A stretch of 64,000 nt of DNA from Alphaproteobacteria bacterium (GCA_015062385.1 SUUT01000001.1:38619-102618), one strand, 5' to 3'; numbered from the stretch's first letter, positions 3,267 through 38,200 are shown. The notes: generated by a model not told the origin, from the letters alone. Made by a program: numbers and translations.

Positions 3267-3560
3267 TCAATCTTTTGGCGGAACGGGATCATATCCCGAC
3301 TTTCCCCACGGATGACACTTCAAAATACGTTTGAGCGACAGCATAGCACCTTTTATAACACCATGCAACAAAAAAGCTTCTTTTGCATATGCTGAACACG
3401 TTGGCGTAAAACGACAGCAATTCGGTTTGAGCGGTGATAAAATTTTTTGATAAATCCAAATACAGCATAAAAACACCTGCAAACATATCTGCGATAAGAC
3501 TTGTTTTATCCGTTGAAACAACATTTTATTCCCCGATTTCCGAATTGGTTGTTGATACAT
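3267..3560 (-). CDS. yidD: Membrane protein insertion efficiency factor YidD. The true start is probably internal, at Met13.
   Basis: Motifs [14 protein letters not shown]...[17 protein letters not shown]. It overlaps the rnpA 3' end, as is usual. Confidence 0.75.
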
Positions 3561-4497
3561 AAAAAAACTTATCGTTTATTTTTGTTTTTTCACTTGTCTC
3601 CTCGGATAAGGTAGAAGATTGGTTGTTTTGCTCCGCCGGTGTTATCCGTTTACCAATCAAAGTGGAAACACTGTCTTTCTCGTTTTTCCCAACCTCCTCG
3701 GATAAGGTAGAAGATTGGTTGTTTTGCTCCGCCGGTATTATCCGTTTACCAATCAAAGTGGAAACACTGTCTTTCTCGTTTTTCCCAACCTCCTCGGATA
3801 AGGTAGAAGATTGGTTGTTTTGCTCCACCGGTGTTATCCGTTTACCAATCAAAGCGGAAGAACCGTCTTTCTCGTTTTTCCCAACCTCCTCGGATAAAGT
3901 AGAAGATTGGTTGTTTTGCTCCGCCGGTATTATCCGTTTACCAATCAAAGCGGAAGAACCGTCTTTCCCATTTTTCCCGATCTCCTCGAATAAGGTAGAA
4001 GATTGGTTGTTTTGCTCCGCCGATATTATCCGTTTACCAATCAAAGTGGAAACACTGTCTTTCTCGTTTTTCCCAACCTCCTCGGATAAGGTAGAAGATG
4101 CAACCGAATCCGACTTCTCTTTACCGGATAACCGCTGTTCATAATCTGCTTGAACGGCACGCAACAAATACAGTGCATCTTTTTTCAACGCCTCAAAAGA
4201 ACGGGTTGCCGTATTAAAACGACCGATAAAAACATAATTATACCCTATGGGGGCTTCGGGAGCAAAAAACAACCGAACAACTTCTCTCATTCTGCGTCTA
4301 ACCTTGTTGCGAACAACAGCCGACCCCAGTTTTTTTGTTGTAGTAAAACCAACCTGCAAAATATCTTTTTGATTTTCAATTACCTGACAAATCAGTCCAG
4401 ATGAAACATATTTTCGTCCGTTATTAGAGGCCAATAAAAAATATTTACGCTTGCGAATACGAGACGGCAATGTAAACTTTTTTTCACTCATAAACAA
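3526..4497 (-). CDS. rnpA: RNase P protein component RnpA with an in-frame C-terminal extension of about 200 aa. The extension is built from 32-aa tandem repeats.
   Basis: The N-terminal 120 aa match RnpA ([17 protein letters not shown]...[18 protein letters not shown]). The ORF then continues in-frame through about 5.2 copies of [32 protein letters not shown]. Confidence 0.75.
3599..4100. repeat. 96-bp tandem direct repeat, about 5.2 copies (starts at 3599, 3695, 3791, 3887, 3983, with a partial copy at 4079). It lies inside the rnpA 3' coding region.
   Basis: Direct reading: the unit tcctcggataaggtagaagattggttgttttgctccgccggtgttatccgtttaccaatcaaagtggaaacactgtctttctcgtttttcccaacc recurs with a few substitutions. 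Confidence 0.9.
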
Positions 4498-4699
4498 ATC
4501 CTTATCTCCACCGGTTTAACAAACCAATTCAACAAAAATCAAAAGAACCAAACCATTAACTGTATCCGTTGATTTGATAAACACAAGGGCACTATTGTTA
4601 ACATTTTATCACTCATCCCCTCATTCAACTCACCGAATAAAAAAAGGAACGAATACACTGACACGTTCCTTTTTGCAATAGGCTAATCTCTTTAAGCAA

Positions 4700-7367: not shown

Positions 7368-9659
7368 TTACATTGCCCGTCCGGTTGTACGTGTCGGTTT
7401 TGGGGCTTGATATGTCGGTGTTTGGCCTGAACGTCCCATTGCCAACTGACGTTGTCGTTGCCGATTTGCACTTGCTGCTTCATCATTAGCTTTTTTCTTA
7501 CGGTCAACATCACGTGCCTGTGCATCCAATTCCTCTTTTCGCCGATTATCTACCGGCATACGTGTTCCGTCCGGCATTGTCACAACCGGATTTTTAACCG
7601 TTCCCGAAATTCTAACCTCTGCCAAATCATCCATTTGAACAGATGCCAATGCCTCGGCTTTTTGACGTTCATGTTCATTATCCCGCACATTTTTCGGTGA
7701 TTGTACACCATTTGATCCATGTTGCACGGCATCGGCTTTTGTTTCCCGAACATTATTTGCATTTGATACCTGTTTCGGAGCCTTTACGCCGGTCGATGAT
7801 TGTACAATATTTGGGTTTTGAACATCGGTTGAAGCCTGCAAATCGGCAGTCGGTTGCACACCGCTCGACTGTACATTATTCGGACTTGGCATACCGTTTG
7901 GAACCTGCTCTTTTGTTGAAGACTGCAAACCGGCAGTCGGTTGCACATTGTTCGACTGTACATTATTCGGACTTGATATACCATTTGGTGCTTGCCCTTT
8001 TGTCGAAGCCTGCAAATCGGCAACAGTTTGCTCCAACTCTTGAATCTTTGCCTGTTGAACAGCAACTTGTTCATCCGGAGACATCAATGAAACATTTTCC
8101 ATTTCCTTTGAAGCCGATACGATTTGTTTCATCTCGTCATATGATTGTTTAATACCCGTCATTTCGTAAACATAATTTTTAAATTCGGGCAAATGTGCAT
8201 ATGTTGCTAAATATTGACCGTATTTCTTTCGCTGTGATGATGACATTTTATCAAAATCAACACTTCCATCCGATTTTGTCGGCAATCTTTTTGCAAACTC
8301 TCTTTTCTCCAACAATGCTTTTTCGTATTTGGTATATGGACCTTTTTCCGGAATAATGGCATAATTCGGGTCTTGCAAAATCCATTTTTGTCCGTCACGA
8401 GCCAATTTAGTCGATAAATCCAATTTGCTCAAACCACGATTTCTTAAATTATCGGCAATAAATTCACCCCGTTTTTCAACGGCTTTTTTGGCATCTTCTT
8501 TTTGACTTAAACGTTTTTGTTTTAAATATTCTTTTAAAGAATCCAACGGAACCATTATACCGGCAACAAGAATATCCAATGCAAAATCGGCCATATCTTT
8601 TTCGGATCCGATTTTATCAATATGTTTGGATACCCCTTGCTTATATACCGTTTCCCAATCGGTTTTGCGTTTATCGGCACTACCCAATTTAACACCATCC
8701 ACATAACCGTATTGACCTTTATCTGCAAAAGAATCATTTAATTTACGAATATCTTCTTCTGCTTTATCCGGCTCATTTGTACCAACCTTAAAGGCATCAT
8801 GCAAATCACGCATTTCTTTGGCTTCCTGCGACATCTCAAACGTATTACCGGAACGAATTGTTTCATTTTCCGAATGAGGCGTGCCTGTAAAATCAACTGT
8901 TTTTGTTTCTCCATCCGCCGTATTATCCGTCATCGGTTGCGGGGCAAACCCCGTTTGCATTTCCACATCCGGCGAAAAATTAACATCTGCCGTATTTCCC
9001 GTATCCGTCATATTAATCGTCGTGTCCGGCTGAGACAAATCCAAATGTTCCGTATACAACGGGGTATCCGGTTTAAATTCCACCGTTCCCGTTTCTAAAG
9101 TGCCGGTTTGCGGTTCAACCGCATCCCGATAATCCCGCATACCGGACTTTGTCTCAAACATACCATGTTGTTCATATGTATCCATACGGGCTTCATTTTC
9201 TTGCACAACAGAATTGACCTGTTCTGTTTCTGCCTGCGGTAACGGCCCTTCCTGAAAAGCCTGTGCATAATTTGTCCTCAAATAAGAAACACCGGCTTCT
9301 AATTGCGGTTTTTGTTCCATAAACTGTTCTTCTTCGGCAGAAAGAGCCTGTTCTTGTTTTTCTTTTTTATCTTGCAGATAATGATATGCTTGAACAGCCT
9401 GAACCGTCTGACGAACAAACGTATCCCTTTGAACGGTTGCCTGTACTTGTTGAAACACTTCAGGCTTTGTTTGAACGGACACCTGATTCATCGCCTGTTG
9501 AAGACGCCCCATATCGCCTGTTTGAGCAGCTACCCGTATTTCTCTAATCGGTTGAAGGACCGGCGTTCCGGAAAAAAACTCTTCCATTTCGGCCATTTCG
9601 CCATCCGTTGCCGTTAACAATTTTGCAATTTGTTCTTCACTCATTAAAGATTCAGCCAT
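7368..9659 (-). CDS. Large hypothetical protein (763 aa). It is low-complexity and Q/N/S/T-rich, and contains 31-aa repeats.
   Basis: Long ORF with no recognisable catalytic motif. About 2.4 copies of a 93-bp repeat at about 7838-8040 encode LQASTKGQAPNGISSPNNVQS-like units. Confidence 0.55.
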   Translation of the reverse strand: MAESLMSEEQIAKLLTATDGEMAEMEEFFSGTPVLQPIREIRVAAQTGDMGRLQQAMNQVSVQTKPEVFQQVQATVQRDTFVRQTVQAVQAYHYLQDKKEKQEQALSAEEEQFMEQKPQLEAGVSYLRTNYAQAFQEGPLPQAETEQVNSVVQENEARMDTYEQHGMFETKSGMRDYRDAVEPQTGTLETGTVEFKPDTPLYTEHLDLSQPDTTINMTDTGNTADVNFSPDVEMQTGFAPQPMTDNTADGETKTVDFTGTPHSENETIRSGNTFEMSQEAKEMRDLHDAFKVGTNEPDKAEEDIRKLNDSFADKGQYGYVDGVKLGSADKRKTDWETVYKQGVSKHIDKIGSEKDMADFALDILVAGIMVPLDSLKEYLKQKRLSQKEDAKKAVEKRGEFIADNLRNRGLSKLDLSTKLARDGQKWILQDPNYAIIPEKGPYTKYEKALLEKREFAKRLPTKSDGSVDFDKMSSSQRKKYGQYLATYAHLPEFKNYVYEMTGIKQSYDEMKQIVSASKEMENVSLMSPDEQVAVQQAKIQELEQTVADLQASTKGQAPNGISSPNNVQSNNVQPTAGLQSSTKEQVPNGMPSPNNVQSSGVQPTADLQASTDVQNPNIVQSSTGVKAPKQVSNANNVRETKADAVQHGSNGVQSPKNVRDNEHERQKAEALASVQMDDLAEVRISGTVKNPVVTMPDGTRMPVDNRRKEELDAQARDVDRKKKANDEAASANRQRQRQLAMGRSGQTPTYQAPKPTRTTGRAM

Positions 9660-16124: not shown

Positions 16125-17507
16125 TTATTCTGCCGGTTTCGGGCACGTTGTGTTCTTTTCATCCCACAACGCACACGCTCCATAGACTTTTCCCGTTATT
16201 CCCGCTCCCGCTGCCGTGCAATTTATGTCTTTCCACTGTAAATGGCAGTACATTTTTGGCGGACATCTCTTTTCTAACTTAAATATTCTATTATTATCTA
16301 CTACTACTTCAAAATATGGATGCGTATAAAAAACCGGTAATCTTTGACATTTACCATACAGTGTTCCTGTCGCTCCGGCACTGGCTGTCGGTATTGGCTC
16401 TCCCTTTTTCCACGACGATTTCGTCCAATTTAACGCACAATATTTTTCCGGACTGCTACACTTTTTTTGGGGTGTTACCGTGACTATATTTGCACTTACT
16501 TCTTCACGATACGCTATATTCGGATCCCCAGGCATTATCAATCGTTGACATTTTCCGTATAATGTGCCCGTTGTTCCCGCACTTGCCGTTGGTACCGTTT
16601 CTCCTTTTTTCCATGACGATTTCGTCCAATTTAAAAAACAATATTGATTTGGGACTGTACATTGTGTAGCATGCTTTACCTCTCCTGTAGAACTAACTGT
16701 ATAGGAACAATCTGTTTCGTATGTTTTTTCTCCGATACTTTTTACCTCTTGAACAGAATAACTACAATCCGTAGTGTACCCAAAATCTGTATCCGCCTCA
16801 TAAAATGTATAGATACACGCCCCGTCACTCGGAATACATTCGCCGGCTTTTGTTTCACTGCAAAATTCATCATACCGACAACACCATCCGATTTCTTCTG
16901 CCTCTATCTTGCACGATGTTATCTTTTCATCCGCTCTATCGGCACATAAATCGATACACCCGTCTTCGTCATCGTTCAGCCGTTCGTCAAACCCACATGC
17001 CTGACAAATTTCTTCATCTTCATCACAATATATCCCCTCTTGATTCGGACATTCATTGTTGTTGGCACACGGTATTAACTGTTCTGCCCCGTTAAAGGAA
17101 ACAACAACTTCCTGTGTCTCCGCCGAACAGTCCATCGGCGTATTGTCCATTGTATAAAGCGTGAGTTCGCCGGCATCTTGTGCCAATCTGTTTAAATGAA
17201 TACAGATGTTCTTTTCAACTGCTTCTATCAACACAAAATCATTTTGAGCTTTATCACGTCGAACATAATATGTATAGGGGCTCGGTAATTCTTCTCTAAA
17301 TTCTTCCCATTCATACGGAACACCATCCGTTTGTGACACAAGGTTAATTTGTATCAGCTTGATATCTTTGTAAACCTGATTCGCTTGATATTTATTAAAT
17401 GCATAGCGGTATCCCCCGACTGCGACTATCGTTAATACCCCGATAACCGCTAATACGCCGAGCATTTCTATCATACTTCGGCCTTGTTCATTCAGTTTGA
17501 TTCGCAT
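16125..17507 (-). CDS. Prepilin-leader (class III signal peptide) protein with a Cys-rich repeat ectodomain. The probable start is Met6 of the track ORF.
   Basis: MRIKLNEQGRSMIEMLGVLAVIGVL has Gly at -1 and Glu at +5. The C-terminal 380 aa are Cys-rich, with 67-aa repeats YC(F/A)LNWTKSSWKKGE.PTASAG.TGTLYGKCQRL. The matching DNA repeat is 201 bp (16341/16542). Confidence 0.7.
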   Translation of the reverse strand: MRIKLNEQGRSMIEMLGVLAVIGVLTIVAVGGYRYAFNKYQANQVYKDIKLIQINLVSQTDGVPYEWEEFREELPSPYTYYVRRDKAQNDFVLIEAVEKNICIHLNRLAQDAGELTLYTMDNTPMDCSAETQEVVVSFNGAEQLIPCANNNECPNQEGIYCDEDEEICQACGFDERLNDDEDGCIDLCADRADEKITSCKIEAEEIGWCCRYDEFCSETKAGECIPSDGACIYTFYEADTDFGYTTDCSYSVQEVKSIGEKTYETDCSYTVSSTGEVKHATQCTVPNQYCFLNWTKSSWKKGETVPTASAGTTGTLYGKCQRLIMPGDPNIAYREEVSANIVTVTPQKKCSSPEKYCALNWTKSSWKKGEPIPTASAGATGTLYGKCQRLPVFYTHPYFEVVVDNNRIFKLEKRCPPKMYCHLQWKDINCTAAGAGITGKVYGACALWDEKNTTCPKPAE

Positions 17508-17548
17508 ATTCCCCTCTCTCATAGTAACATTGCTTTATAAGAGAGTAT

Positions 17549-17699
17549 AAAAAAAGGGACCTTTTTTTCCCTATTCAAAACGCAAAAATCGGATTTTTAC
17601 AAAAATGAAAGATTATTGTTTGAGTTGAATAAGTTAATTAAAATTAAAAAAAATGCTAAAAAGTGAAAAAAAGTGTTGCATTTATACCTCCCTTTTTTT
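17549..17699 (-). promoter_or_regulatory. Conserved 150-bp upstream element, copy 1 of 4. It has complementary termini (AAAAAGGGAC ... CCTCCCTTTTT, imperfect here).
   Basis: About 85% identical to 18589-18735, 37941-38088 and 60897-61047. It lies 41 bp upstream of the pilin-like start codon. A TATACT hexamer abuts its proximal end on the gene strand. Confidence 0.7.
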
Positions 17700-17743
17700 A
17701 CGGATACGCCATAGCTCTCCACTAGCCGGTACAAGAGATATTA

Positions 17744-17820
17744 CCCCTTTCAAACTTTATTCAACGGTTCAAAAGTTTTGCAAATCTTGTGTTCGTACTG
17801 AATTTTCTACATCTGCTCAC
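17744..17820. repeat. Conserved 77-bp segment, copy 1 of 2 (repeat B)
   Basis: cccctttcaaactttattcaacggttcaaaagttttgcaaatcttgtgttcgtactgaattttctaca recurs at 18814-18890. A 1-nt indel between the copies argues for non-coding sequence. Confidence 0.6.
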
Positions 17821-17901: not shown

Positions 17902-18528
17902 TTAATGTTCATTTCCAATCTGACTATGAACATTTACATCTCTTCGTGATGTTTCATCTATATGAACACTTTGACCATTCTCTTTCAATACAGATTTTAA
18001 ATCAACATCTGTTTTCTGATTTTCATTTGCAGAGACAACCTCATTTATATCTGCCGAATTTTCTTTTACAGAAACCTCTTTAACAACACGTGCTCCTTCC
18101 CGTTTTACGAAACTGGGCATACGAGCACTCCAAAACCCGCCTCTAATTTCCTCTGTCATTTTACCGTCTAAACTTTCAAGTTCTTTTTTCATACCACGTA
18201 CTTTTATAAAATCCGGTATAGAAAGTAGCTCACCCGCAAATCTGAGTATTCCCCATTTCCTCACTTCATATTCAAGCGTAACACGATCTAATGGCGTATA
18301 ACCACGACTATCCTGTCCATTTATATCTGCCCCTTTTTCCACCAGTTTACGTAGTGTATCTTTGTCTGTATGAATAGCAGCAACATGTACGAGCGGTTCT
18401 CCCTCTTTGTTTGGTTTATTAATATCTTCTTTAGAAAGAGTCGGTAATAAAGTATCAATTTTATTCGTATCATTATCCATAATTGCTTTGGTTAATGCTT
18501 CAATTGTTTTATTTGTATTGTTACTCAT
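17902..18528 (-). CDS. Ankyrin-repeat protein (208 aa)
   Basis: EGEPLVHVAAIHTDKDTLRKLVEKGADINGQDSRGYTPLD is a canonical ANK repeat. There is no signal peptide. Confidence 0.8.
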   Translation of the reverse strand: MSNNTNKTIEALTKAIMDNDTNKIDTLLPTLSKEDINKPNKEGEPLVHVAAIHTDKDTLRKLVEKGADINGQDSRGYTPLDRVTLEYEVRKWGILRFAGELLSIPDFIKVRGMKKELESLDGKMTEEIRGGFWSARMPSFVKREGARVVKEVSVKENSADINEVVSANENQKTDVDLKSVLKENGQSVHIDETSRRDVNVHSQIGNEH

Positions 18529-18588
18529 ATTTTATACTCCTTTTGCATATTCATACAAATGTTTCAATCTATATAATTTATATTATAC

Positions 18589-18735
18589 AAAAAGGTACGT
18601 TTTTTTCCCTATTCGAATCGGAAAAATCGATTTTTTGAAAAAACAAAAGATTATTGTTTTATTTGAATAATTTAGTCGCAATTAAAAAAAATTCAAAAAA
18701 GTGAAAAAAATTGTTGCAAAAAAACGTACCTTTTT
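18589..18735 (-). promoter_or_regulatory. Conserved 150-bp upstream element, copy 2 of 4. Its termini AAAAAGGTAC / GTACCTTTTT are perfectly complementary and carry compensatory substitutions.
   Basis: 60 bp upstream of the ankyrin start. On the gene strand TGTATAAT lies immediately adjacent to the element. Confidence 0.7.
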
Positions 18736-18813
18736 GTATAGATAGGAACCTATTTACCTTTCAAAAAAAAGCTCTTTATATAAATCTCCATACGTTAACG
18801 CATATGGAATTAT

Positions 18814-18890
18814 CCCTTTCAAACTTTATTCAGCGGTTCAAAAATTTCGCAAACCTTGTGTTCTACTGAATTTTCTACACCGCTTGCTGA
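18814..18890. repeat. Repeat B, copy 2 of 2
   Basis: See 17744-17820. Confidence 0.6.
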
Positions 18891-36786: not shown

Positions 36787-37896
36787 TTATAATTTTGTTC
36801 GACAATCATCTCCGCCCCAACCGGATATGCATTCACACCACGTTTCGCCGTTGATTTCTCGTAAAATACCGGTACTCTCATAATCATAAAGCTTTCCACA
36901 GGGTTTGGCATTTTCATCTCGTTCATCGCAATACTGTCCCGTATATCCATCATAGCACATACATTGTCCGTATCCATATGGTGTTCCGTTCCCATTACAT
37001 TCCGCTTTCTCAGATGTTTTATATTCACAGAAATTCCCCCAATAACCTCCTCCACAAGAACATCCATTTCCTTTTGCAGACCCATTTTGCCATCCATAAC
37101 CGCCCGTCTCATTACAAACATCAGTTATCCCATCGCCAAATTCACAATGTTCACCCCAATAGCCTCTTTTACATAATTCACAAACACAACGATTGTATTT
37201 ATCTACGTATACCAGTGAACCATGTCCATTACAATACTTTTCATTTGTACAATCTGAATCTGTAAAGCAATTACCGGCAGCATCCTGTGTTTTATAGCCC
37301 AATGAGGTATCACACCGATTACATAATTTTCCTGTATATCCTGTATCACAGATACAAGAATCCCCCTCTAATCTGCCATGCATTCCGCAATTTAATAATG
37401 TCGGTGTATCTTCTTCCGGCGTTTCTTCTTCCGTATTTCCGGAATCATCCGTATATTCAACGCTTTCGCCCGTCAAATCATTTTTAATCGTATAAATAAT
37501 TGCCCCACATATTTCTGCTGTTTCTCCCTCTACACGAATCGTATCCACCAATTTCATTTCTACCTGCTTTAATTGATTACAATCTTCTTTCGGCACATTT
37601 AATACCGATACTTCAAAATAATCGGCATATCCAACTGCCTGGTAGGCATATCCCATTCTTAACGTTGCATTTTCTTCACTTAATATTTCGCCTTCACTCA
37701 TCTCTTCCAATCTCTGAATTTTTAAACCCGTATCATAGGCAATAATATTTAACTCGTTGACGATTTCATTCACACGATATTTCATCATGCCGAATTTATA
37801 TCCCATAATACCGCCAACACTTAATACACCGATAACGGCTAAAACACCTAACATTTCTACCATACTTCGACCAGTTTCGTTGATTTTAGTTTGCAT
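36787..37896 (-). CDS. Prepilin-leader protein with a tandem EGF-like ectodomain
   Basis: MQTKINETGRSMVEMLGVLAVIGVLSVGG leader. At least 5 CxCxxGYxGxxC motifs follow (CICDTGYTGKLC, CSCGGGYWGNFC, CMCYDGYTGQYC, CECISGWGGDDC). Confidence 0.7.
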   Translation of the reverse strand: MQTKINETGRSMVEMLGVLAVIGVLSVGGIMGYKFGMMKYRVNEIVNELNIIAYDTGLKIQRLEEMSEGEILSEENATLRMGYAYQAVGYADYFEVSVLNVPKEDCNQLKQVEMKLVDTIRVEGETAEICGAIIYTIKNDLTGESVEYTDDSGNTEEETPEEDTPTLLNCGMHGRLEGDSCICDTGYTGKLCNRCDTSLGYKTQDAAGNCFTDSDCTNEKYCNGHGSLVYVDKYNRCVCELCKRGYWGEHCEFGDGITDVCNETGGYGWQNGSAKGNGCSCGGGYWGNFCEYKTSEKAECNGNGTPYGYGQCMCYDGYTGQYCDERDENAKPCGKLYDYESTGILREINGETWCECISGWGGDDCRTKL

Positions 37897-37940
37897 ATTC
37901 TTCTCCCTTTTTACAGTTGCTCATATATACATACTGTAAT

Positions 37941-38088
37941 AAAAGGGACCTTTTTTTCCCGCTTCAAATGACGAAAATCGGATTTTTGAGAAAACAAAAG
38001 ATTATTGTTTTAGTTGAATTATTTAGTTAAAATCAAAAAAAATCCCAAAATGTGAAAAAAAGTGTTGCAATGATACGTCCCTTTTTTT
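37941..38088 (-). promoter_or_regulatory. Conserved 150-bp upstream element, copy 3 of 4 (termini AAAAGGGAC / GTCCCTTTTTTT)
   Basis: 44 bp upstream of the start at 37896. Confidence 0.7.
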
Positions 38089-38171
38089 ACGGATAATAGC
38101 CGGTATAATCAGCAAATAAAATTAAAAACGGATAAATATTTTCTCGAATATGCCTCTATTTTTTTATCAAT

Positions 38172-38200
38172 TTGACAAAAACCGCATACAGTGTTATACT
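38172..38200 (+). promoter_or_regulatory. Sigma70 consensus promoter TTGACA-N17-TATACT for the 38260 gene, with a G7 tract in the 5' UTR
   Basis: TTGACA at 38172-38177, a 17-bp spacer and TATACT at 38195-38200. GGGGGGG lies at 38212-38218. Confidence 0.55.

Follow-up and report, generated by a model that had tools for sequence, protein, structure and literature searches.

The E. coli fimS element is an invertible promoter that lies before a pilus subunit gene, is bounded by short inverted repeats and needs DNA-bending proteins. In the mpl system of Mycoplasma penetrans, the invertible piece is about 135 bp long and is bounded by 12-bp repeats. PMC2268961, citing Horino et al. 2003, describes these mpl (P35) genes as a large surface-protein gene family dispersed in clusters, each gene with a small adjacent switch between short inverted repeats, which are thought to be turned ON and OFF independently. 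Among the Mpi-controlled promoters of Bacteroides fragilis, some are strongly OFF-biased (PMC10403206), and the repeats of this species are called hin-like in the title of Patrick et al. 2003, as cited in PMC11602134. The sites of the Din family (hix, gix, cix and pix of Hin, Gin, Cin and Pin, respectively) are palindromic, each with an A-tract, two G/C pairs, a 2-bp core of AA or GA and a mirror half (PMC3241671, Table 3). Strands are cut and exchanged at the two core residues, which must match between partner sites (PMC3241671, PMC3798978), and the segments concerned are 1-4 kb long and require a Fis-bound enhancer (PMC3798978).

Here, a family of small repeats was analyzed in a 64-kb stretch of alphaproteobacterial DNA (the window, meaning the whole stretch), which is ordinary chromosome carrying yidC, rnpA, obg, lptB, pfk and heptose and LPS genes. 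A previous sequence-only reading of the window had described four copies of a 150-bp element, approximately 85% identical to each other, that share one orientation relative to the downstream minus-strand gene and lie 41-60 bp from its start codon. The copies were recovered as repeat family D3 (17536-17706, 18574-18744, 37925-38095 and 60884-61054), with 78-90% identity to the reference copy in a repeat search of the window, and orientation was uniform in 4/4 copies. The proximal termini were located 41, 60, 44 and 45 nt from start codons at 17507, 18528, 37896 and 60851, respectively. The element is thus real, but 150 bp proved too short, as the conserved unit covers about 165-175 bp from a TATC(Y)(R)(Y) flank, where the 5' boundary is sharp, to a -10-like hexamer. 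With these limits, and all on the minus strand, copy w1 (17544-17706, TATCCGT flank to TATACT) lies upstream of a pilin-like gene (16125-17507), w2 (18582-18744) upstream of an ankyrin-repeat gene (17902-18528), w3 (37933-38095) upstream of a pilin-like EGF-rich gene (36787-37896) and w4 (60892-61054) upstream of a pilin-like Cys-rich gene (58761-60851). Mean column identity was 77% for the four copies including flanks and 84% across 15 copies, and an nhmmer profile built from the four copies recovered each of them with E-values of 1e-44 to 7e-53. The first ~100 coding bases are also repeated in three of the four genes, which are paralogues (repeat family D4); conservation of the element exceeds that of this neighboring coding stretch and that of the 5' UTR between element and gene. 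A second conserved stretch of about 72 nt (>90% identical; 17740-17811 and 18809-18879) was observed upstream of w1 and w2, where it follows closely on the terminators of the ankyrin gene and the DUF465 gene.

The terminal inverted repeat described in the sequence-only reading is real and consists of two inverted 20-bp quasi-palindromic sites of the form A7GG-NN-C(G/C)T7. The interior between site centers is exactly 129 bp in the main copies (centers ~129-131 bp apart), all of which have arms of 9-23 bp flanking it. Read in gene orientation, the distal arm is TATCCGT-AAAAAAAGG-GA-CG-TATCA-TTGCAAC and the proximal arm GGG-AAAAAAAGG-TC-CC-TTTTTTT-ATACT. The proximal arm by itself forms a 20-bp palindrome with an asymmetric 2-bp center, and of the two halves of the distal arm, one is good and the other degenerate. 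In w1, the distal site (A7GG-GA-GGTATAAAT, 17680-17699) is centered on GA at 17689-17690, and the palindromic proximal site (A7GG-TC-CCT7, 17549-17568) is centered at 17558-17559. The same arrangement was found in w3 (distal A7GG-GA-CGTATCATT, 38069-38088, center 38078-38079; proximal A7GG-TC-CCTTTTATT, 37938-37957, center 37947-37948) and in w4 (distal A8G-GA-CGTATAAAT, 61028-61047, center 61037-61038; proximal A7GG-TC-CCT7, 60897-60916, center 60906-60907). In w2, both centers read TA (distal ACAAAAAGG-TA-CGTTTTTTT, 18718-18737, center 18727-18728; proximal A7CG-TA-CCTTTTTGT, 18587-18606, center 18596-18597). The double change previously recognized in this copy, from GGGAC..GTCCC to GGTAC..GTACC, was reconfirmed; w2 carries five further changes, all towards complementarity, and its inverted repeat is perfect over 23 bp (TATACAAAAAGGTACGTTTTTTT).

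A strict two-block pattern scan for further copies hit a single species of the genome collection and a single metagenome contig. The species, an uncultured Alphaproteobacteria MAG from water-buffalo rectum (RGIG7750), had five exact matches on four contigs, and its sixth copy (on contig L007) was found by nhmmer. Further copies came from contigs carrying the window proteins or their homologues, and phage contigs were rejected as a source (six single unpaired matches resembling ordinary terminators). The resulting set comprises 23 intact and distinct sequences of the element. They come from about 20 loci of several related MAG species of uncultured gut Alphaproteobacteria and include two divergent copies with an interior of 153 bp; an additional copy with a 1-nt deletion in the proximal site (locus L010) was counted apart from these. 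Every copy lies directly 5' of a gene and in a single orientation relative to it, and no stand-alone, antisense or intragenic copies or isolated palindromic sites were found in ~370 kb of sampled sequence.

The products of three of the four window genes have a leader resembling that of type IV prepilins (..GRSM(I/V)EMLGVLAVIGVL..), with Cys-rich or teneurin-EGF-like domains after it, while the fourth (17902-18528, behind w2) encodes an ankyrin-repeat protein. The prepilin leader GRSMVEMLGVLAVIGVLS occurs in the products of all element-preceded genes but two, the leaderless exceptions being the ankyrin gene behind w2 and a Cys-rich gene in L010. Prepilin-leader proteins are the kind of gene family that is usually phase-varied. 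The suggestion that the elements mark a regulon of surface or host-interaction genes therefore holds for a surface-protein family and is too broad beyond it, as other ankyrin genes in related loci have no element. In the three pilin-like genes of the window (36787-37896, 16125-17507 and 58761-60851), the leader is fused to large Cys-rich/teneurin-EGF-like domains, and internal repeats of 462 bp (58957-60180) and 201 bp (16339-16645) were observed. These proteins have more than 1500 relatives, almost all of them unnamed proteins of gut Alphaproteobacteria MAGs.

The center dinucleotide is matched between the two arms in 23/23 intact distinct sequences (GA/GA in 15 and TA/TA in eight), and reads AA/AA in the homologous repeats of two distant relatives (L021 and L032). 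An explicit column-pair count over 21 distinct copies, L010 included, gave G-C at the center in 13/21, T-A in 7/21 and a broken pair in 1/21 (L010). Other arm columns were unpaired, namely 18/188 in 14/21 copies, 28/178 in 20/21, and 23/183 and 27/179 in 2/21 each, and A.A, A.C and G.G mismatches were common in the "stem" away from the center. As mismatches are tolerated elsewhere and the centers are matched, the strict requirement is for identity of the centers and not for a helix, and a strict match confined to the center is more in keeping with a crossover core than with a helix. At markers only ~12 bp from the TA allele, either variant (GAAGCGGG or GAATAGGG) occurs beside it, and L018b combines two other copies as a mosaic; the copies therefore recombine with each other, yet their two centers, 131 bp apart, stay matched. 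When the proximal center changes from C to A, the change is uncompensated in the adjacent GGG and compensated 131 bp away in the other arm. The matching of the arms is under constraint, and their layout appears to be that of a site-specific recombination site, closest to the Hin/Gin type. The earlier argument that covariation indicates pairing rather than recognition by a protein was incomplete, since two sites that recombine with each other must match too.

A -10-like hexamer set flush against the proximal terminus, with no -35 evident, had been proposed for the gene strand. This hexamer was found on the minus strand as TATACT in w1 (17544-17549, just outside the repeat), TATAAT in w2 (18582-18587), TACAGT in w3 (37933-37938) and TATACT in w4 (60892-60897), and T, A, A and T at positions 1, 2, 4 and 6 of TAnAnT are invariant in 21 copies. 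With the element in its native orientation, CGGGAA stands at the place of the -35, and a promoter scan of the native gene strand returned no promoter for either w1 or w2. The plus strand carries a near-invariant TTGCA(A/T/G) hexamer just inside the gene-distal site, as TTGCAT in w1 (17676-17681, where it would face the gene after inversion), TTGCAA in w2 (18714-18719) and w3 (38065-38070) and TTGCAT in w4 (61024-61029). When the 129-bp interior was inverted in silico, TTGCA(A/T/G) was placed exactly 17 nt upstream of TAnAnT in 23/23 intact sequences, the two divergent copies with their 153-bp interior giving the 17-nt spacing as well. Examples of the flipped arrangement are TTGCAA-17-TATAAT (w2, L013 and L011), TTGCAA-17-TACAGT (w3) and TTGCAT-17-TATACT (w1 and w4).

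The chance of finding a TTG hexamer at exactly 17 nt is ~1.5% when estimated from shuffled interiors and 3-4% from the observed TTG frequency, and the match was met after several other promoter readings had been tried; we consider it suggestive, not overwhelming. In many copies the flipped promoter is moderate (7-8/12 consensus matches), and AT-rich DNA offers competing promoter candidates, such as TTGACT-18-AATAAT on the gene strand of w4, the -35 of which varies among copies and is missing in the divergent ones. An internal plus-strand TTGTTT-N17-TAAAAT, previously thought to be conserved, is so in part, as its second hexamer reads TAAAAT, CGCAAT, TAAAAT and CAAAAT in the four copies. Canonical promoters are present elsewhere in the window, with TTGACA-N17-TATACT at ~38171-38199 (by eye; not returned by the scan) and TTGCAA-N17-TATAAT at 61088-61116 (promoter scan). 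The proposal of an activator-dependent promoter cassette can thus be retained as regards a shared promoter cassette, and the activator is not needed, given that TTGCA(A/T/G) stands 17 nt from the -10 upon inversion. A sigma-54 promoter was rejected by eye, as GG-N10-GC (distal arm plus TTGCA) is found only in GA variants and its GG is destroyed in TA variants; MerR-type spacing and a -35 at TTGAAG were likewise rejected by eye for wrong spacing.

The explanation that we favor, and to which we assign about even confidence, is that each copy is a phase-variable invertible promoter (inverton) that switches one pilin-like surface-protein gene on and off, with all copies assembled OFF. A site-specific recombinase would exchange strands at the central dinucleotides and thereby invert the 129-bp interior; the matched 2-bp core and A-tract half-sites suggest a small serine invertase. 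In the assembled orientation, with CGGGAA at the -35 position, the gene would be OFF. Inversion would generate TTGCAA-N17-TA(T/C)A(C/A/G)T, which is a normal sigma-70 promoter comparable to others of the window, and turn the gene ON. The window type would thus have a split promoter, whose -10 stays next to the gene while its -35 moves with the invertible piece; we know of no characterized inverton with this unusual design. Short inverted repeats around ~100-800 bp beside a gene, which are expected of an inverton, are found around 129 bp here and, in relatives, as 24-28-bp arms around 99-107 bp, and a promoter facing the gene in one orientation only was obtained in silico (23/23 when flipped, CGGGAA when native). 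No flipped orientation was found among the 23 distinct sequences, on more than 35 assembled contigs from many samples, where assemblies report the majority state only and contigs sharing the same neighbors were not shown separately in the look-up. If ~10-20 loci per genome were each ON in a small fraction of cells, a consensus assembly would always show them OFF. It also counts against inversion that a loop of 131 bp is very short for a serine invertase and that the interior is conserved far beyond the needs of a -35 hexamer.

Searches that included tblastn found no recombinase gene within the 64-kb window. Two small serine recombinases of the Resolvase family are encoded in L012 and are widespread in the clade at ~70% identity; as they sit in an integrase/restriction-modification island, they are not claimed as the cognate enzyme. 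This integrative island is itself widespread in the clade (L012 1-7708; also L023, L024, L026 and L027), and its cargo comprises a DUF6538-type integrase, DUF6626, restriction-modification/defence genes and the two small serine recombinases, the second of which has opposite orientations in L026 and L027.

Each of the described systems shares part of this arrangement. As in mpl, many surface-protein genes would each have their own switch of ~130 bp, and 135 bp is close to the 129-bp interior found here. However, mpl belongs to another phylum, gene family and repeat sequence, the whole promoter lies inside its invertible piece, its candidate recombinases are of the tyrosine type, and inversion was shown experimentally there, whereas it is inferred here. 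Bacteroides fragilis is also a gut bacterium with many loci that carry one kind of inverted repeat, served by a global serine recombinase (Mpi) that is encoded elsewhere. In that species, the invertible region contains the complete promoter, genomes readily show both orientations and the targets are polysaccharide operons, in contrast to the pilin-like proteins here, for which no Mpi-like gene was identified. The fimS switch resembles the elements, as read here, in being an invertible promoter with short inverted repeats ahead of a pilus-type gene, but there is only one such locus, which is 314 bp long and has 9-bp repeats, adjacent tyrosine recombinases (FimB/FimE) and the whole promoter inside.

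With Din-family sites the elements share the layout, a matched 2-bp core (GA, TA and AA here) and a half-site that is often degenerate. The letters differ, with AAACC-AA-GGTTT there and AAAAAAAGG-GA-CCTTTTTTT with a longer A-tract here, as does half-site length (a 26-bp site with 12-bp half-sites ending in ..AAACC, compared to A7GG). The segment is also far shorter than in that family (~130 bp), and no enhancer or invertase was identified here, where a Din-type system would have an invertase of ~190 aa encoded nearby. Because the half-site letters differ and no invertase was identified, we propose what looks like a resemblance of mechanism to the Din family and not membership.

Rather more tentatively than the inverton itself, we propose that these loci form a previously undescribed multi-locus phase-variation system of uncultured ruminant/gut Alphaproteobacteria, in which 10-20 or more prepilin-leader Cys-rich/EGF-like genes would each be controlled by an inverton of ~130 bp with Hin-like A-tract sites, a split promoter and OFF as the default state. 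If true, a poorly known group of gut Alphaproteobacteria would vary a large repertoire of pilus-anchored, adhesin-like proteins via many tiny switches. The apparent lack of promoters before these genes in assemblies would also be explained, and a sequence signature would be at hand for locating the switches and their recombinase in metagenomes. Even without any flipping, a large surface-protein family would have in this element a new two-site regulatory cassette that is strongly conserved.

Two distant relatives carry homologous repeats with a different interior. In L032 (GCA_965341615.1), a 28-nt inverted repeat with 96% identity encloses 107 bp ahead of a pilin-like gene; its sites are A7GG-TT-CCT7 and A7GG-AA-CGT7, with matched centers. 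The best promoter of the L032 region (TTGACA-17-TATACT, 11/12) is located within the repeat, abuts the proximal arm and reads into the pilin-like gene. In L021 (GCA_965319345.1), a perfect 24-bp repeat (GTATCAAAAAAAGGAACGTTTTTT, center AA) encloses 99 bp and sits between two divergent paralogous pilin-like genes. The sole strong promoter of L021 (TTGACA-17-TAGAGT) reads into one of the two genes, and the promoter scan returned none for the other. Center-to-center distances are 129, 129 and 131 bp, and the interiors of L032 and L021 are unrelated to that of the window type. L021 and L032 have equal orientation relative to the orthologous gene, so that no flip is shown by this pair, and for P0090 no close orthologue was found elsewhere.

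The main rival to inversion, which we regard as unlikely, is a promoter cassette that does not move. The gal operon, where two palindromic operators ~113 bp apart flank the promoter and repression by GalR and HU involves a loop, is the model for this reading. Here, the proximal palindrome and the partial site 131 bp upstream would be two operators for the same dimeric regulator, and the intervening A/T-tract DNA would form a GalR-type loop without inversion. The single orientation in all assemblies would follow naturally, and the palindrome, which in the window type lies against or over the core promoter, is found at +1 of the complete promoters of L021 and L032, a classic position for a repressor. 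The recurrence of the ~129-131 bp center spacing across lineages with unrelated interiors also speaks for two fixed operators, as does the high conservation of the interior, which might be expected of sites for bending proteins. However, operators in gal need not match at their centers or be mutually inverted, and the promoter there is complete. Such a cassette leaves unexplained the matched asymmetric center dinucleotides, which are always inverted, the missing -35 together with a TTGCA(A/T/G) exactly where inversion needs one, and the gene of L021 that has a site but no promoter. Furthermore, no single helical phase accommodates distances of 129, 131 and 155 bp, and the 10-11-bp periodicity that binding of a protein to one face of the DNA should leave was not found in the conservation (p = 0.6).

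It is improbable that the copies are a MITE-like non-autonomous element, with terminal inverted repeats and promoter parts, that spread upstream of genes and is now immobile. Terminal inverted repeats, small size, A+T-richness and multiple copies are all compatible with such an origin, contigs often break at the element, and insertion sequences are known to carry a -35 that faces outward close to one of their ends. On the other hand, flanks read directly showed no target-site duplications, no transposase was found nearby, and conservation extends past both repeats into the TATC.. flank and the -10. Uniform orientation, a near-constant distance to the start codon and the lack of any intragenic, antisense or gene-distant copy in ~370 kb do not suit a mobile element either. 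The sequence-only reading had already argued against a transposase-recognized terminal inverted repeat, and the fixed position and orientation without target duplications agree with it in giving a scattered MITE no support.

A cis-acting RNA, in which the copies would give rise to a leader or small RNA whose termini form a long-range stem or a terminator/attenuator, is in our judgment quite improbable. One column pair covaries, the w1 proximal arm with its T-run was flagged as terminator-like by a scan, and the gene strand folded with z = -2.55 compared to -1.32 for the other strand, both of which are weak. The earlier conclusion that covariation implies base pairing as an RNA stem was not upheld, as RNAalifold on 15 copies returned no internal helices and only an A/U-rich terminal stem of -10.7 kcal/mol. 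An Rfam search gave no hits at the gathering score, with only noise up to E = 10, and no tRNA or tmRNA was detected. Ahead of the distal arm no promoter is conserved, and the arm is often separated by only ~30-60 nt from the preceding gene, a terminator or a divergent promoter, and the local GGGA/TCCC hairpin is not compensated in TA variants. As the promoter of L021 and L032 lies between the arms, these cannot pair within one transcript, and no single transcript holds both. An intrinsic terminator was rejected in its own right, because the proximal arm provides a stem of 4-5 bp only and the C-to-A change of TA variants is uncompensated in the local partner G.

Plain paralogy, whereby a functionless repeat would have been copied with the 5' ends of paralogous genes and kept alike by gene conversion, would fit the repeated first ~100 coding bases (family D4) and the conversion between loci seen in mosaic copies, but is very improbable given that the arms co-vary, that the element has a sharp 5' boundary and is better conserved than the adjacent UTR and coding stretch, and that it also precedes two non-homologous genes (ankyrin behind w2; L010). 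Two further candidates were rejected, a small ORF within the element because its reading frame is not conserved (by eye), and phase variation by homopolymer length because tract lengths are conserved among copies.

Several further observations concern individual loci. The copy at L010 (1372-1556) is the sole one with unmatched centers, its distal site reading TA and its proximal site having lost 1 nt; with a downstream Cys-rich gene that lacks the prepilin leader, this may be a decayed locus. The half-element in L026 (10872-10965) was considered as a break at a site center, which was rejected in favor of a deletion at a microhomology (TATTTTTT). Compared to L018 (9794-12900), this deletion took away the remainder of the element together with the pilin-like gene and a gene for capsule synthesis, and pilin-like loci are gained and lost between strains. 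L019 (16545-16731) and L018 (16545-16732) represent one locus from two samples and differ by one T in the interior T8 run, which may be homopolymer slippage or an assembly error. In the window, a hairpin at 4641-4686 (AAAAAAAGGAACG-N12-CGTTCCTTTTT) resembles an ordinary bidirectional terminator, with arms that are similar to the half-sites of the element. A 763-aa ORF (7368-9659) without a Pfam match contains 87-bp tandem repeats (7809-8031). Lastly, six tandem 96-bp repeats (3502-4195) were observed at the ORF at 3526-4497, the N-terminus of which matches the RNase P protein and the repetitive tail of which is unusually long for rnpA.
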